NCBI RefSeq assembly: GCF_053078305.1
Contig: NZ_CP166879.1
Reading direction: 5' to 3' (one strand)
Length of the DNA: 64,000 bases
The position numbers and the translations under genes are program-made. The notes under the pieces are model-generated. The model ran no database searches. It had not been told where the DNA came from and saw only the letters and a program-made list of their open reading frames with translations. Within the stretch, counting starts at the first letter, position 1, and every line of letters starts with the position of its first letter. Below are positions 17,450 to 43,059 of the stretch, in pieces.

Positions 17450-17668
<219 letters not shown>

Positions 17669-25409: not shown

Positions 25410-28037
25410 ATGAGCGACCTTGCGAGAGAAATTACACCGGTCAACATTGAGGAAGAGCTGAAGAGCTCATATCTGGATTATGCGATGTCGGTCATTGTTG
25501 GCCGTGCGCTGCCAGATGTCCGAGATGGCCTGAAGCCGGTACACCGTCGCGTACTTTACGCCATGAACGTACTAGGCAATGACTGGAACAAAGCCTATAA
25601 AAAATCTGCCCGTGTCGTTGGTGACGTAATCGGTAAATACCATCCCCATGGTGACTCGGCGGTTTATGACACGATCGTCCGTATGGCGCAGCCATTCTCG
25701 CTGCGTTACATGCTGGTAGACGGTCAGGGTAACTTCGGTTCCATCGACGGCGACTCTGCGGCGGCAATGCGTTATACGGAAATCCGTCTGGCGAAAATTG
25801 CCCATGAACTGATGGCCGATCTCGAAAAAGAGACGGTCGATTTCGTTGATAACTATGACGGCACGGAAAAAATTCCCGACGTCATGCCAACCAAAATTCC
25901 TAACCTGCTGGTGAACGGTTCTTCCGGTATCGCCGTAGGTATGGCAACCAACATCCCGCCGCACAACCTGACGGAAGTCATCAACGGTTGTCTGGCGTAT
26001 ATCGATGATGAAGACATCAGCATTGAAGGGCTGATGGAACACATCCCGGGGCCGGACTTCCCGACGGCGGCAATCATTAACGGTCGTCGCGGTATTGAAG
26101 AAGCTTACCGTACCGGTCGCGGCAAGGTATATATCCGCGCCCGTGCTGAAGTGGAAGTTGACGCCAAAACCGGACGTGAAACCATTATCGTCCACGAAAT
26201 TCCGTATCAGGTAAACAAAGCGCGCCTGATCGAGAAGATTGCGGAACTGGTAAAAGAAAAACGCGTGGAAGGCATCAGCGCGCTGCGTGACGAGTCTGAC
26301 AAAGACGGTATGCGCATCGTGATTGAAGTGAAACGCGATGCGGTCGGTGAAGTTGTGCTCAACAACCTCTACTCCCAGACCCAGTTGCAGGTTTCTTTCG
26401 GTATCAACATGGTGGCATTGCACCATGGTCAGCCGAAGATCATGAACCTGAAAGACATCATCGCGGCGTTTGTTCGTCACCGCCGTGAAGTGGTGACCCG
26501 TCGTACTATTTTCGAACTGCGTAAAGCTCGCGATCGTGCTCATATCCTTGAAGCATTAGCCGTGGCGCTGGCGAACATCGACCCGATCATCGAACTGATC
26601 CGTCATGCGCCGACGCCTGCAGAAGCGAAAACTGCGCTGGTTGCTAATCCGTGGCAGCTGGGCAACGTTGCCGCGATGCTCGAACGTGCGGGCGACGATG
26701 CTGCGCGTCCGGAATGGCTGGAGCCAGAGTTCGGCGTGCGCGATGGTCTGTACTACCTGACCGAACAGCAAGCTCAGGCGATTCTGGATCTGCGTTTGCA
26801 GAAACTGACCGGCCTTGAGCACGAAAAACTGCTCGACGAATACAAAGAGCTGCTGGATCAGATCGCGGAACTGCTGCGTATTCTTGGTAGCGCCGATCGT
26901 CTGATGGAAGTGATCCGTGAAGAGCTGGAGCTGGTTCGTGAACAGTTCGGTGATAAACGCCGCACTGAAATCACCGCCAACAGCGCAGACATCAACCTGG
27001 AAGATCTGATCACTCAGGAAGATGTGGTCGTGACGCTCTCTCACCAGGGCTACGTTAAGTATCAGCCGCTTTCTGAATACGAAGCGCAGCGTCGTGGCGG
27101 GAAAGGTAAATCTGCCGCACGTATTAAAGAAGAAGACTTTATCGACCGACTGCTGGTGGCGAATACCCACGACCATATTCTGTGCTTCTCCAGCCGTGGT
27201 CGCGTCTATTCGATGAAAGTTTACCAGTTGCCGGAAGCCACTCGTGGCGCGCGCGGTCGTCCGATCGTCAACCTGCTGCCGCTGGAGCAGGACGAGCGTA
27301 TTACCGCTATCCTGCCGGTGACCGAGTTTGAAGAAGGCGTGAAAGTCTTCATGGCGACTGCTAACGGTACTGTGAAGAAAACCGTCCTCACCGAATTCAA
27401 CCGTCTGCGTACCGCCGGTAAAGTGGCGATCAAACTGGTTGAAGGCGATGAGCTGATCGGCGTTGACCTGACCAGCGGCGAAGACGAAGTAATGCTGTTC
27501 TCCGCCGAAGGTAAAGTGGTGCGCTTTAAAGAGTCTTCTGTCCGTGCGATGGGCTGCAACACCACCGGTGTTCGCGGTATTCGTTTAGGCGAAGGTGATA
27601 AAGTCGTCTCTTTGATCGTGCCTCGTGGCGATGGCGCAATCCTCACCGCAACGCAGAACGGTTATGGTAAACGTACCGCAGTGGCGGAATACCCGACTAA
27701 GTCGCGTGCGACGAAAGGGGTTATCTCCATCAAGGTTACCGAACGTAACGGTTTAGTTGTTGGCGCGGTGCAGGTAGATGACTGCGACCAGATCATGATG
27801 ATCACCGATGCCGGTACGCTGGTACGTACTCGCGTTTCGGAAATCAGCATCGTGGGCCGTAACACCCAGGGCGTAATCCTCATCCGTACTGCGGAAGATG
27901 AAAACGTGGTGGGTCTGCAACGCGTGGCTGAACCGGTTGACGAGGAAGATCTGGACACCATCGATGGCAGTGCTGCGGAAGGAGACGACGAAATCGCTCC
28001 GGAAGTGGACGTTGACGACGAGCCAGAAGAAGAATAA
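25410..28037 (+). CDS. gyrA: DNA gyrase subunit A
   Basis: 875-aa ORF ([53 protein letters not shown]...), acidic C-terminal tail. Confidence 0.97.
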
Positions 28038-28185
28038 TTTTACTTCTTCATGCCAAAAGGGAGCTATCTCCCTTGTTTGAATTGAAAAGTCCAGGCTGCA
28101 AAGTCTGGGCTTTTGTCGTATTAGGGCGCGGTAAAGTTTGGCTGTGTCCGTAAAAAATGGCTGGCTATACACAAGGAATGTGGCA

Positions 28186-35032
<6,847 letters not shown>

Positions 35033-36682
35033 GTGAACTGGCGCAGAATCGTCTGGCTATTGGCGTTGGTTACTCTGCCAACGCTTGCGGAGGAGACGCC
35101 GTTACAACTGGTGCTGCGCGGTGCGCAGCACGATCAACTGTATCAGCTGTCGTCATCAGGCGTGACCAAAGTCTCAGCATTACCTGACTCGCTCACCACG
35201 CCGTTAGGGAGTTTGTGGAAACTGTATGTTTACGCCTGGCTGGAGGATACCCATCAACCGGAGCAGCCCTACCAGTGTCGCGGAAACTCCCCGGAAGAGG
35301 TTTATTGTTGTCAGGCTGGGGAGAGCATAACGCGCGATACCGCGCTGGTACGTTCCTGTGGGCTCTATTTTGCGCCGCAGCGGTTGCATATTGGCGCAGA
35401 TGTGTGGGGGCAATACTGGCAACAGCGTCAGGCACCTGCGTGGTTAGCGTCTCTTACTACGCTGAAGCCAGAAACCTCGGTAACGGTTAAATCGCTGCTT
35501 GATTCATTAGCGACGTTACCTGCGCAAAACACAGCTCAGGAAGTCTTACTGGAAGTGGTGCTGGACGAGGCGAAAATCGGTGTCGCATCCATGCTCGGTA
35601 GTCGGGTACGGGTGAAAACCTGGAGCTGGTTTGCCGATGATAAACAGGAAATCCGTCAGGGTGGTTTTGCTGGCTGGTTAACCGATGGTACACCGCTGTG
35701 GGTTACTGGCAGTGGCACCAGCAAAACGGTACTGACCCGTTATGCGACGGTGCTTAATCGGGTTTTGCCAGTGCCGACGCAAGTTGCCAGTGGGCAATGT
35801 GTAAAGGTGGAGCTGTTTGCCCGCTATCCGCTGAAGAAAATCACAGCGGAAAAGAGTACGACGGCAGTAAAACCCGGCGTACTTAATGGGCGCTATCGTG
35901 TGACGTTTACTAATGGTAACCACATTACGTTTGTCAGCCACGGTGAGACGACCTTACTGAGCGAAAAGGGCAAACTGAAATTGCAGTCGCATCTTGATCG
36001 TGAAGAGTACGTTGCCAGAGTTCTGGATCGCGAGGCGAAAAGTACGCCCCCTGAGGCAGCGAAAGCCATGACCGTGGCGATTCGCACTTTTTTACAGCAA
36101 AACGCCAATCGGGAAGGCGATTGCCTGACCATCCCTGACAGCAGCGCCACGCAGCGTGTTTCTGCTTCGCCAGCTACCACGGGGGCGCGAACGATGACCG
36201 CCTGGACGCAGGATCTCATCTATGCGGGCGATCCGGTTCATTATCACGGCAGTCGCGCTACCGAAGGGACGCTTTCCTGGCGGCAAGCCACGGCCCAGGC
36301 GGGACGGGGAGAGCGTTACGACCAGATACTCGCGTTTGCTTATCCCGACAACAGCCTTAGCCGCTGGGGAGCGCCACGCTCAACCTGTCAGTTATTACCC
36401 AAAGCGAAAGCCTGGCTGGCGAAAAAAATGCCGCAGTGGCGGCGTATATTACAAGGCGAGACGGGGTACAACGAACCAGACGTGTTTGCGGTCTGTCGTT
36501 TAGTCTCAGGTTTCCCCTATACCGATCGGCAGCAGAAACGGCTGTTTATTCGTAACTTCTTTACGCTTCAGGATCGGCTGGATTTAACCCATGAGTATCT
36601 GCACCTGGCCTTTGATGGTTATCCCACCGGGCTTGATGAGAACTATATCGAAACGCTGACCCGACAATTATTAATGGACTAA
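35033..36682 (+). CDS. yfaQ: DUF2300-type protein YfaQ
   Basis: 549-aa ORF starting on GTG directly after the yfaS stop. Confidence 0.8.
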   Translation: MNWRRIVWLLALVTLPTLAEETPLQLVLRGAQHDQLYQLSSSGVTKVSALPDSLTTPLGSLWKLYVYAWLEDTHQPEQPYQCRGNSPEEVYCCQAGESITRDTALVRSCGLYFAPQRLHIGADVWGQYWQQRQAPAWLASLTTLKPETSVTVKSLLDSLATLPAQNTAQEVLLEVVLDEAKIGVASMLGSRVRVKTWSWFADDKQEIRQGGFAGWLTDGTPLWVTGSGTSKTVLTRYATVLNRVLPVPTQVASGQCVKVELFARYPLKKITAEKSTTAVKPGVLNGRYRVTFTNGNHITFVSHGETTLLSEKGKLKLQSHLDREEYVARVLDREAKSTPPEAAKAMTVAIRTFLQQNANREGDCLTIPDSSATQRVSASPATTGARTMTAWTQDLIYAGDPVHYHGSRATEGTLSWRQATAQAGRGERYDQILAFAYPDNSLSRWGAPRSTCQLLPKAKAWLAKKMPQWRRILQGETGYNEPDVFAVCRLVSGFPYTDRQQKRLFIRNFFTLQDRLDLTHEYLHLAFDGYPTGLDENYIETLTRQLLMD

Positions 36683-36686
36683 TGCT

Positions 36687-37463
36687 ATGCGAAAGATTTT
36701 TCTTCCGTTGTTACTGGTGGCGCTTTCGCCTGTCGCTCACAGTGAAGGTGTGCAGGAAGTCGAGATTGACGCACCGCTCTCAGGCTGGCATCCGGCAGAG
36801 GGCGAAGATGCCAGTTTTTCACAATCGATCAATTACCCGGCGTCGTCCGTCAACATGGCAGATGATCAAAATATCTCAGCGCAGATCCGCGGAAAAATAA
36901 AGAATTATGCTGCGGCGGGTAAAGTTCAGCAGGGCCGGCTGGTGGTCAACGGTGCCAGTATGCCGCAGAGAATTGAATCCGATGGTTCATTTGCACGCCC
37001 TTATATTTTCACTGAAGGCAGCAACAGCGTGCAGGTCATCAGCCCGGATGGGCAAAGCCGACAAAAAATGCAGTTTTACTCAACGCCGGGTACAGGAACG
37101 ATTCGTGCACGTTTACGGCTGGTTCTCTCGTGGGATACGGACAATACCGATCTCGATCTCCATGTTGTCACGCCCGATGGAGAACACGCCTGGTACGGTA
37201 ACACCGTGCTGAAAAACAGTGGTGCACTGGATATGGATGTCACGACGGGGTATGGACCCGAGATTTTCGCCATGCCAGCGCCAGTTCACGGACGCTATCA
37301 GGTGTATATCAACTACTATGGCGGACGCAGCGAAACGGAATTAACCACCGCCCAACTGACGCTGATCACCGATGAAGGATCGGTCAATGAGAAACAGGAA
37401 ACATTTATTGTACCGATGCGTAATGCTGGCGAGCTGACGCTGGTGAAAAGTTTTGACTGGTGA
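36687..37463 (+). CDS. yfaP: DUF2135-type protein YfaP
   Basis: 258-aa ORF with signal peptide (MRKIFLPLLLVALSPVAHS). Confidence 0.85.
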   Translation: MRKIFLPLLLVALSPVAHSEGVQEVEIDAPLSGWHPAEGEDASFSQSINYPASSVNMADDQNISAQIRGKIKNYAAAGKVQQGRLVVNGASMPQRIESDGSFARPYIFTEGSNSVQVISPDGQSRQKMQFYSTPGTGTIRARLRLVLSWDTDNTDLDLHVVTPDGEHAWYGNTVLKNSGALDMDVTTGYGPEIFAMPAPVHGRYQVYINYYGGRSETELTTAQLTLITDEGSVNEKQETFIVPMRNAGELTLVKSFDW

Positions 37464-37519
37464 TCCATCCCTTCACACAACCTGGCTCTTTCTTTTTTCA
37501 GATAAGACTGCTGGGCGAT

Positions 37520-37559
37520 CTGCCGACGCCAGGATATAACCATTAACAAGCGTCGGCAG
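37520..37559. other. 10-bp perfect inverted repeat (ctgccgacgc ... gcgtcggcag) in the yfaP-rcsC gap
   Basis: Read directly; 20-nt loop, followed by a T-rich stretch. Possible terminator or scar. Confidence 0.4.
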
Positions 37560-37737
37560 ATTGGTCATTTCTTATTTTTCGTACTGAGAACTGTCCATTT
37601 ACTCCGGCTTTCCTGGTTAAGGCAATGGTTTCTAAGCGATACGCATTATTGCAATGGTGACAGAACATTGCGGTAACACGCTTTTACCGCTACCTTAACC
37701 ACACTCCATCGGTCACCTGAGGCGGAGCTTCGCCCCT

Positions 37738-40786
<3,049 letters not shown>

Positions 40787-41437
40787 TTAGTCTTTATCTG
40801 CCGGACTTAAGGTCACAGAAGAGAGATAATTCAGCAGGGCGATATCGTTCTCGACACCCAGCTTCATCATCGCAGATTTCTTCTGGCTACTGATGGTTTT
40901 AATACTGCGGTTCAGCTTTTTAGCGATCTCGGTCACCAGGAAGCCTTCCGCAAACAGGCGCAGAACTTCACTCTCTTTTGGCGAGAGACGCTTGTCACCG
41001 TAACCACCAGCACTGATTTTTTCCAACAGGCGAGAAACGCTTTCCGGGGTAAATTTCTTCCCTTTCTGCAGCGCGGCGAGAGCTTTCGGCAGATCGGTCG
41101 GTGCACCTTGTTTCAGCACGATCCCTTCGATATCCAGATCCAATACCGCACTAAGAATCGCCGGGTTGTTGTTCATGGTCAGAACAATGATCGACAGGCT
41201 TGGGAAATGGCGCTTGATGTACTTGATTAAGGTAATGCCATCGCCGTACTTATCGCCAGGCATGGAGAGATCGGTAATCAACACATGCGCATCCAGTTTC
41301 GGCAGGTTGTTGATCAGTGCTGTAGAGTCTTCAAATTCGCCGACAACATTCACCCACTCAATTTGCTCAAGTGATTTGCGAATACCGAACAAGACTATCG
41401 GATGGTCATCGGCAATAATTACGTTCATATTGTTCAT
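40787..41437 (-). CDS. rcsB: Rcs phosphorelay response regulator (LuxR/FixJ-type)
   Basis: 216-aa ORF (MNNMNVIIADDHPIVLFGIRKSLEQ...). Confidence 0.97.
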   Translation of the reverse strand: MNNMNVIIADDHPIVLFGIRKSLEQIEWVNVVGEFEDSTALINNLPKLDAHVLITDLSMPGDKYGDGITLIKYIKRHFPSLSIIVLTMNNNPAILSAVLDLDIEGIVLKQGAPTDLPKALAALQKGKKFTPESVSRLLEKISAGGYGDKRLSPKESEVLRLFAEGFLVTEIAKKLNRSIKTISSQKKSAMMKLGVENDIALLNYLSSVTLSPADKD

Positions 41438-41481
41438 GTACTTGCACCTATGTATTAACTATTTGATTTTAAAAATATATT

Positions 41482-42771
41482 CTATGCTTTGTTTAGTCGT
41501 TGGGGCACCTGTGGGACATAAGTACATAGCTTTCTGTTTAGTACTTCTACCTGGGACTGGTTATTGTCTTTCATCCATGCACCGTAAACATTGTAAACCA
41601 TCTGGGCATTCGCATGTCCCATCTGGTTGGCTATGAAGTTTGGATTTGCTCCGGCAGTTAAAGCCCAGCAAGCATAAGTATGCCGAGACTGATACGCTTT
41701 TCTATGGCGAATTTTTGCTCGTTTTAATGCAGATTCCCATGTTCTGTTGATGGATGTTACGGCATAATGAACTCCTGAGTTACCTGTGCGATCTAATATC
41801 TGAGGATTGAAAACAAAGCTGCATGAGTGAGTGCTTGTCCGGCCATACTCTCGCAGCTTTACTTCTATCTGATATTGTTTACCAAGCCTGGTTAATGTCG
41901 CCTGATTTTTTAATACGTCAATTGCTGGCTGTATGAGTTGTATTACCCTGTTTGTTCCTGCATCTGTTTTGGGTAGTGTAAATTCCTTTGTCTGAGTGTA
42001 ATTCCTTTTGACGGTCAAGGTACCCGCTTCCAGATCGATATCCTCCCATGCTAGCCCACACAGTTCGCCATGCCGCATCCCGGTATATACAGCCAGCGAC
42101 CAGAAATTTTTAGTTTGCTGGTGGTGGCACGCATCAATCAGTCTGGCAAACTCATCTTTTGTTAGTGGATCGGGAGGTGTTTTCGCTCTTTTCAGTGATG
42201 GAAGCTCACTGAAAGGGTTTTTGCCTATATACCCATTGTTTGCCGCAAAACGGAACATCCCGGAGATAATTGTCATATAGCTATTTACAGTAGGTACACT
42301 ACGACCTTTAATAGGCTTCCTCTGATTTTTTCCTGGCAACTGATATCCCGTTAATAATTCTTTACGAAAAATGAGAACATCTTCCTGTGTAATTGATGAT
42401 GCCAGTTTGTTCCCTCCAAGGCAGTCAAGGCAATTTCGGATAGCTGATTTGTATCTGACCATGGCATTTGCTGTTATTTCCATTTTCTTAAGCTCAAGCC
42501 ATTTTTCCGAAAGTGCCTTAATGGTTATCTCTTTTTTTCCCAGACCAAAATGTTTCAGGTTAGGGGAATTAGGGAACTGCGCGGCGTAGTCGAAGCTCCC
42601 CATTCTTATTGCAAAACAAACGGAAGTGCGAAGTTCACCTGCGATCTTCCGGTTTTTGGCGGTGTCAGGAACACCGAGGTTTTCTCTGACACGTTTGCCG
42701 TTATAGTGAAACCATATGCGGAGTGATCCTCCATGGTTTTCAACGCCTGTCGGGTATGATGCGTTACTCAT
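41482..42771 (-). CDS. int: phage integrase (tyrosine recombinase, Rac IntR-like)
   Basis: 429 aa. C-terminal catalytic region with ...HTYACWALTAGANPNFIANQMGHANAQMVYNVYGAW... (R-H-R-Y family pattern). Confidence 0.92.
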   Translation of the reverse strand: MSNASYPTGVENHGGSLRIWFHYNGKRVRENLGVPDTAKNRKIAGELRTSVCFAIRMGSFDYAAQFPNSPNLKHFGLGKKEITIKALSEKWLELKKMEITANAMVRYKSAIRNCLDCLGGNKLASSITQEDVLIFRKELLTGYQLPGKNQRKPIKGRSVPTVNSYMTIISGMFRFAANNGYIGKNPFSELPSLKRAKTPPDPLTKDEFARLIDACHHQQTKNFWSLAVYTGMRHGELCGLAWEDIDLEAGTLTVKRNYTQTKEFTLPKTDAGTNRVIQLIQPAIDVLKNQATLTRLGKQYQIEVKLREYGRTSTHSCSFVFNPQILDRTGNSGVHYAVTSINRTWESALKRAKIRHRKAYQSRHTYACWALTAGANPNFIANQMGHANAQMVYNVYGAWMKDNNQSQVEVLNRKLCTYVPQVPQRLNKA

Positions 42772-42804: not shown

Positions 42805-43059
42805 TTAACCGGAACTTGCATTTTTGGCACCTGGTTGTTTCTGGTTTTCGATCCAGCGCATAATTTCCTCAATGTTGTATACACATTCACTGAAAGGCCC
42901 GGGCTCTCCTTCTGCTGCGTAATGACGGTATTCTTTCCCCAGTAACCAGGATTTTTTTCTTGCTCTGGCAATGGTTCCTGATTTCAGTCCAGTTGCAGCA
43001 ATAAGGGTTCTTTCTGTGCACCATTTGCTGGGCGTTATCTGATAGATGATTGTTTCCAT
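42805..43059 (-). CDS. xis: excisionase-like small DNA-binding protein
   Basis: 84-aa ORF immediately upstream of int, with an HTH-like segment (TERTLIAATGLKSGTIARARKKSW). Confidence 0.5.
   Translation of the reverse strand: METIIYQITPSKWCTERTLIAATGLKSGTIARARKKSWLLGKEYRHYAAEGEPGPFSECVYNIEEIMRWIENQKQPGAKNASSG

Follow-up and report, generated by a model that had tools for sequence, protein, structure and literature searches.

In the annotated K-12 genome, the genes of the ato locus lie between a sensor kinase gene and the yfa cluster, in the order rcsC-atoS-atoC-atoD-atoA-atoE-atoB-yfaP (b2219-b2224). An earlier note on the DNA described here had given this map, which agrees with the annotated K-12 record, and had reported that yfaP is followed directly by rcsC. 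The locus raises the question of whether ato was deleted on this chromosome or inserted in K-12-like lineages, and also of how old the difference is and what the short sequence now separating the two genes does. We refer to the analysed stretch of 64,000 nucleotides (64 kb) of an E. coli chromosome as the window.

The gap between yfaP and rcsC

The plus strand of the window carries gyrA, yfaA, yfaT, yfaS (30413-35032), yfaQ (35033-36682) and yfaP (36687-37463), followed by a gap and rcsC (37738-40587). The yfaP gene encodes 258 amino acids and is the last member of the yfaA-yfaT-yfaS-yfaQ-yfaP cluster, while rcsC starts with TTG and encodes the 949-residue sensor kinase of the Rcs phosphorelay. 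The two genes are adjacent and co-directional, and the gap between the last base of yfaP and the first of rcsC measures 274 bp (37464-37737), exactly as the earlier note had stated. Annotated relatives have the identical gene pair at equal spacing. On the other side of rcsC, rcsB (40787-41437) is encoded on the minus strand, and two tandem copies of the REP-type naRNA4 element (RF02564) occupy the interval between them (40587-40663 and 40701-40777); a third naRNA4 repeat (RF02564) is found further upstream, at 17546-17616. Within the yfa cluster, yfaS, a member of the alpha-2-macroglobulin family, is an intact long open reading frame, whereas it is a pseudogene in K-12, and yfaQ is intact, whereas the EDL933 copy has an internal stop.

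The chromosomal site and the flanking genes are shared with K-12. High identity to K-12 is lost at 37464, one base past the yfaP stop codon, and is regained at 37662. The 197 nt between the K-12-like flanks have no K-12 match by megablast. A tblastn search with the six K-12 Ato proteins detected no ato gene anywhere in the 64-kb window, and the sole matches correspond to the paralogous kinase and receiver domains within rcsC. The K-12 ato locus is thus absent, as had been claimed, although the absence is not a clean one and a decayed remnant of atoS is left behind.

The remnant can be followed on the minus strand, where the gap aligns collinearly with K-12 through the rcsC-atoS spacer and into atoS up to approximately codon 49, with many substitutions and internal deletions of about 50 nt. 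When the window-specific 197 nt are compared to the whole 26-kb K-12 locus, the best local match is atoS nt 79-147, with an alignment score of 60 against 17.5 +/- 2.2 in 1000 shuffles (z = 19). A database-wide blastn search with the scar as the query also returned annotated atoS, at 79.7%. The minus-strand peptide (M)TNLPTLVNGYILASADRPAVLSEKRK resembles residues 23-49 of K-12 AtoS, MVIVPTLTIGYIVETEGRSAVLSEKEK. The coding capacity of atoS is destroyed, as its start region is decayed and only about 49 of 608 codon equivalents are left.

Four parts can be distinguished in the gap. The 24 nt next to yfaP (37465-37488) represent the left deletion junction; their origin is not assignable, and they are the most diverged part when the scars of E. 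coli and E. whittamii are compared. They are followed by the decayed 5' remnant of atoS (37489-37582, minus strand), equivalent to approximately codons 1-49 with the internal deletions of about 50 nt, and by the decayed former divergent rcsC-atoS intergenic region (37583-37661), which aligns with K-12. The identity of its rcsC-proximal portion (37614-37661) to the K-12 spacer is about 68%, as judged by eye. The final 76 bp upstream of rcsC (37662-37737, plus strand) are identical in ato+ and scar haplotypes and presumably contain the rcsC promoter and leader. A scan of 37300-37900 with consensus promoter sequences found no promoter-like site.

Small open reading frames can be found in the remnant. 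In strains 2017.06.04CC and A65EC, PGAP calls a hypothetical protein of 41 amino acids inside the scar (L020 1519-1644, equivalent to window 37473-37598, minus strand), and the call is made in only some genomes. This frame is the residual atoS-derived frame, opened by two substitutions, and it is closed in the window. We also considered a conserved small protein encoded by a 31-codon minus-strand frame, which was ruled out by a stop at codon 15 in E. whittamii, where the residual atoS frame contains a TAG.

Since the gap consists of the decayed 5' end of atoS and the old spacer, ato appears to have been deleted here rather than inserted in K-12. We conclude that the gap is very probably the scar of an old deletion of approximately 7.2 kb, representing one of two diverged haplotypes. 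Lost with this deletion would be atoS from about codon 50, atoC, atoDAEB and the spacer between atoB and yfaP, including a convergent hairpin terminator, a segment corresponding approximately to NC_000913.3 2,320,190-2,327,365. What the minus strand would have kept is the old spacer between rcsC and atoS with some 49 codons of atoS, both of which would then have decayed by substitutions and small deletions, and the yfaA-P cluster would have been left pointing straight into rcsC. We regard three things as established: the deletion-scar origin of the gap, its occurrence across genomes, and its age in comparison with other alleles. Searches of the literature found no explicit description of the scar or of ato loss in O157 or B1 strains, only reports on the LAA pathogenicity island and a discrepancy of enterohaemorrhagic E. 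coli models, both discussed below.

Distribution and age of the scar

The scar sequence is present in 1,536 of 5,426 complete E. coli genomes (~28%), and a contiguous yfaP-rcsC junction in 1,537. The full ato locus was found in 3,899 of these genomes and any ato DNA in 3,932, with 1,494 having no detectable ato DNA. As 3,899 and 1,536 add up to more than 5,426, at least 9 complete genomes must combine the scar with a full ato locus, a co-occurrence known from the counts alone and not from an individual genome. Among the records listed, the window scar is 100% identical to that of O157:H7 and O55:H7, and 99.1% identical to that of O103:H2, O111:H8 and many others. We take these serotypes to represent phylogroups E and B1. 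EDL933 carries exactly this scar, and its annotated genome makes plain that O157:H7 lacks ato. The absence of ato is a common, ordinary gene-content polymorphism that is essentially known; what the present analysis adds is the atoS remnant, the age of the allele and its sharing across species, the recurrence of independent losses, and a possibly co-opted hairpin. The earlier note was right to see a lineage different from K-12, but the lineage concerned is a large one, and its allele is old.

The strain itself has no close counterpart for the wider region. For 28000-41440 (13.4 kb), the closest of the complete E. coli genomes is 99.2% identical, even though the scar within it is 100% identical to O157:H7. 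The lineage of the strain is not represented in the complete-genome collection, and the region looks mosaic.

Several other genomes bear on the direction of the change. In the E. albertii type strain, yfaP is followed by a K-12-type atoB-yfaP spacer, in a contig that ends 64 bp into it. E. coli E69 has the full ato locus. The scar of the window recurs in E. whittamii, where the gap measures 273 bp and the end points are identical. Two further genomes, as the window, have lost ato between rcsC and the yfa cluster. In Escherichia sp. MOD1-EC7003 (L004 10781-11535), a different deletion fuses atoS codons 1-90, which retain 91% amino-acid identity, to the 3' end of atoB, and the atoB terminator and a REP element are also kept. 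In E. coli PCP06171 (L025 2501-4155), an IS1-bounded deletion extends from about codon 138 of atoS into yfaQ, also removing yfaP and part of yfaQ. The end points and ages of these two deletions are unlike those of the window scar, which is older and far more decayed. The ato-type spacer of E. albertii, the intact locus of E69 and the three distinct deletions together indicate that ato is ancestral between rcsC and yfaP and that at least three separate losses have occurred.

The relative age of the scar was estimated from a stretch comprising the diverged spacer and atoS codons 1-49. The intact alleles of K-12, MOD1-EC7003 and E69 are 95.8-98.3% identical to each other in this stretch, and the window and E. 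whittamii scars are 90.5% identical. The scar and the intact allele, which differ in that all six ato genes are gone and the leftover is non-coding, are only 72.5-75.5% identical with 92-125 gapped columns; as the remnant is short and about one column in three of the alignment is a gap, these identities and the ages drawn from them are rough. For the flanking genes, divergence at four-fold sites is 3-6% within E. coli, 11-18% between E. coli and MOD1-EC7003, 28-40% between E. coli and E. whittamii, and 34-39% between E. coli and E. albertii. The flanks of the scar are 97-100% identical to those of ato+ strains right up to the diverged core, having been homogenised by recombination to its edges (37464 and 37662). 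These values point to the scar allele being one of two old, deeply diverged haplotypes, both of which occur in more than one Escherichia species.

Other histories of the site have to be weighed against an old deletion. The ato locus could be a genomic island inserted in K-12-like lineages, with the window preserving the ancestral empty site. At first sight, the approximately 197 bp of the gap that lack a K-12 megablast match do resemble an alternative filler, and the ato cluster is able to travel on a mobile island, LAA (PMC5539235). However, what fills the gap is the atoS-rcsC spacer and the 5' end of atoS, both decayed but ordered and oriented as they should be; an ato-type spacer adjoins yfaP in the E. 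albertii type strain, and the two additional deletions leave fresher ato fragments. We consider this history very improbable, and as a candidate it was rejected on the grounds of the atoS remnant in the gap. It is also improbable, by only a slightly smaller degree, that ato was deleted recently and only in the O157:H7/B1 branch of E. coli, which the wording of the earlier note had implied. While the 99-100% identity of the scar across the sampled E. coli carriers and the 97-100% identity of its flanks to K-12 would be expected of a young event, E. whittamii has the scar with identical end points, and the scar differs by about 25% and many indels from every intact allele, whereas the intact alleles of three lineages differ by 2-4% and four-fold-site divergence within E. 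coli is just 3-6%. The distance of the scar from the closely similar intact alleles argues for an old allele and against a recent lineage-specific loss. A third history accepts the old deletion and has the scar allele enter E. coli or E. whittamii by homologous recombination between species, instead of being a polymorphism that predates their split. The divergence between the two scars (~10-16%) is well below that of the flanking four-fold sites (28-40%), as a transfer would predict. The differences are distributed unevenly, though, with near-neutral segments (37465-37490, 37573-37612 and 37640-37648) and a conserved hairpin block, and in the one E. whittamii genome compared this pattern fits local constraint better than a single recent import. 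Transfer is thus a serious but rather unlikely alternative. A scar-to-scar divergence below the neutral expectation could reflect either transfer or constraint, and the deletion scar would accordingly represent either a polymorphism older than the split of E. coli and E. whittamii or an allele that crossed between the species.

The inverted repeat in the scar

The gap contains a perfect inverted repeat of 12 bp. Its left arm, ATCTGCCGACGC (37518-37529), falls in a heavily changed part of the remnant corresponding approximately to atoS codons 36-39, and its right arm, GCGTCGGCAGAT (37550-37561), corresponds approximately to codons 25-29. The arms are 20 nt apart. The 10-bp perfect repeat that had previously been described at 37520-37559 is real, but represents only the inner 10 bp of the full 12. 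When the gap was shuffled 2000 times with its dinucleotides preserved, 2 of the shuffled sequences contained a perfect inverted repeat of at least 12 bp, so that the repeat exceeds chance. Compared to K-12, the right arm has changed at 4 of 12 positions, which is the background level, and the left arm at 6 of 12, with all of the changes creating complementarity. We infer that the left-arm changes arose either in a single templated (quasi-palindrome) event or through selection. The simplest course would be a templated change that produced the repeat inside the atoS remnant.

The repeat forms the core of an extended hairpin in the yfaP-sense strand (37501-37576, plus strand), predicted to contain 7 + 3 + 14 pairs with a folding energy of -34.7 kcal/mol. 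The z-score of the folding is -5.1, and none of 200 shuffles fold as well. The stem is directly followed by TTT (37577-37579) within a T-rich run. Of the 30 differences that separate the E. coli scar from that of E. whittamii, just 3 fall in a block of 82 nt around the repeat (37491-37572); when differences are placed at random, so sparse a stretch arises in 0.3% of cases. Five E. coli scar haplotypes all have the repeat in unchanged form. In E. whittamii, 2 of the 3 differences in the conserved block break pairs of the repeat, with no compensatory change seen. A consensus terminator scan of 37300-37900 did not recognise the hairpin as a terminator; it returned one site in the gap, on the minus strand (37690-37670), and another terminator-like site inside rcsC. 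In Rfam 15, no family matched 37300-37900 even at E-values up to 1, nor the gap at the gathering score.

A role for the hairpin as a terminator or insulator is attractive, since the native yfaP terminator was deleted and yfaP is now placed head-to-tail with rcsC. As a candidate element of this kind, it may bring the yfaP transcript to an end and protect rcsC from read-through; this is the reading of the hairpin that we prefer, although we think it less likely than not. It shares with Rho-independent terminators a position behind the final gene of an operon, a strong stem rich in G+C on the sense strand, and a T-rich tract downstream of that stem. Such terminators, however, have a loop of 3-8 nt and an immediate U-tract, with a clean run of 7-8 U right after the G+C stem, whereas the loop of the gap hairpin is 20 nt long, the clean run is absent and only TTT directly follows the stem.

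The alternative that the repeat has no function and is a neutral by-product of a templated (quasi-palindrome) mutation in dead sequence has about an even chance of being correct. The repeat sits in a pseudogene remnant, it is neither a canonical terminator nor a member of an Rfam family, and the two pair-breaking substitutions in E. whittamii are uncompensated. A neutral by-product would not readily account for the surrounding 82-nt block being significantly more conserved between the species than the rest of the scar, or for the repeat being unchanged in the five E. coli scar haplotypes; moreover, yfaP lost its native terminator with the deletion and requires some other signal to end transcription there. 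It is scarcely credible that the repeat was left behind by a mobile element (as IS or MITE ends, or as a REP sequence) that caused the deletion. Perfect inverted repeats at deletion junctions are often derived from mobile elements, and IS1 caused one of the independent ato deletions, but both arms align to the atoS coding sequence and are not flanked by direct repeats. A 216-bp scar query matches a median of 1 place per genome and at most 2, with none on plasmids, and a mobile or repetitive element was ruled out on the basis of the single copy and the atoS origin. The O157 small RNA Esr41 was likewise excluded from the gap, as it is located in O-island 43, between z1181 and z1182.

The most far-reaching interpretation combines both lines: the presence or absence of ato would be a long-lived polymorphism maintained by selection across species, and the hairpin would have been co-opted as a terminator, insulator or regulator between yfaP and rcsC, shaping Rcs envelope-stress signalling in O157:H7 and B1 strains. 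The recurrent independent losses and the carriage of ato on the LAA island would fit a polymorphism under selection, but we consider the combination as a whole distinctly unlikely. Should a fragment of a dead gene prove to act as a terminator ahead of rcsC, this would be an attractive case of exaptation, though not a new kind of system. Independently of the hairpin, the site, with two old diverged haplotypes and at least three ato losses, is useful as a marker and shows on a small scale how genes can be lost repeatedly.

Acetoacetate use and the prophage beside rcsB

The gene content predicts that neither AtoSC signalling nor the AtoDAEB pathway is provided by the native locus. The strain, like approximately 28% of completely sequenced E. 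coli, would lack AtoSC-mediated acetoacetate sensing and the use of AtoDAEB from this site, which matters for metabolic models and for how acetoacetate and short-chain fatty acids are used in the gut. The earlier note had likewise expected no ato-dependent acetoacetate catabolism from this locus. The genes are indeed gone, but the inference to phenotype needs two caveats, ato genes carried elsewhere and positive Biolog tests.

In some LEE-negative Shiga toxin-producing E. coli (STEC), module I of the LAA pathogenicity island carries atoSC and atoDAEB beside pheV or selC (PMC5539235, PMC6174562, PMC9729726). The ato content therefore varies among STEC, and strains can have ato away from the native site. 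The pheV and selC positions are outside the window, which covers 64 kb of this genome. The LAA island could be one way for a genome to hold both the scar and ato. Metabolic models of EDL933 and Sakai predicted no growth on acetoacetic acid, while Biolog plates were positive (PMC3229490). As EDL933 has the scar, a missing ato locus cannot simply be equated with a negative acetoacetate test. From the reported discrepancy between model and Biolog result, we infer that the absence of ato is built into the O157:H7 models.

On the far side of rcsB, a lambdoid prophage begins immediately upstream of the gene and runs off the end of the window (41441-64000). Its integrase (41482-42771) and excisionase (42805-43059) are encoded on the minus strand. 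Identity to K-12 stops 3 bp short of the rcsB ATG, where TACATGAACAATATGA is all that the two sequences share. The rcsB gene is thus cut off from rcsD and the upstream promoters and lies directly downstream of the phage int gene. No rcsD was found in the 64-kb window. Of the 5,426 complete genomes, only about 10 have this insertion.

Strain 2013C-3033 has an Stx1c prophage with which the window prophage is collinear. The segment containing stxA1c and stxB1c (L024 39803-41568) is missing at window 59662-59677, and the window prophage is an stx-negative relative of the 2013C-3033 Stx1c prophage. A match to the small RNA STnc100 follows right after the break (59719-59930). The prophage also contains a hok/sok-type module, with a sok match at 54776-54947, and a type I restriction-modification system identified by similarity to an annotated relative, with hsdM at approximately 55719-58130 and hsdS at approximately 58251-59360.
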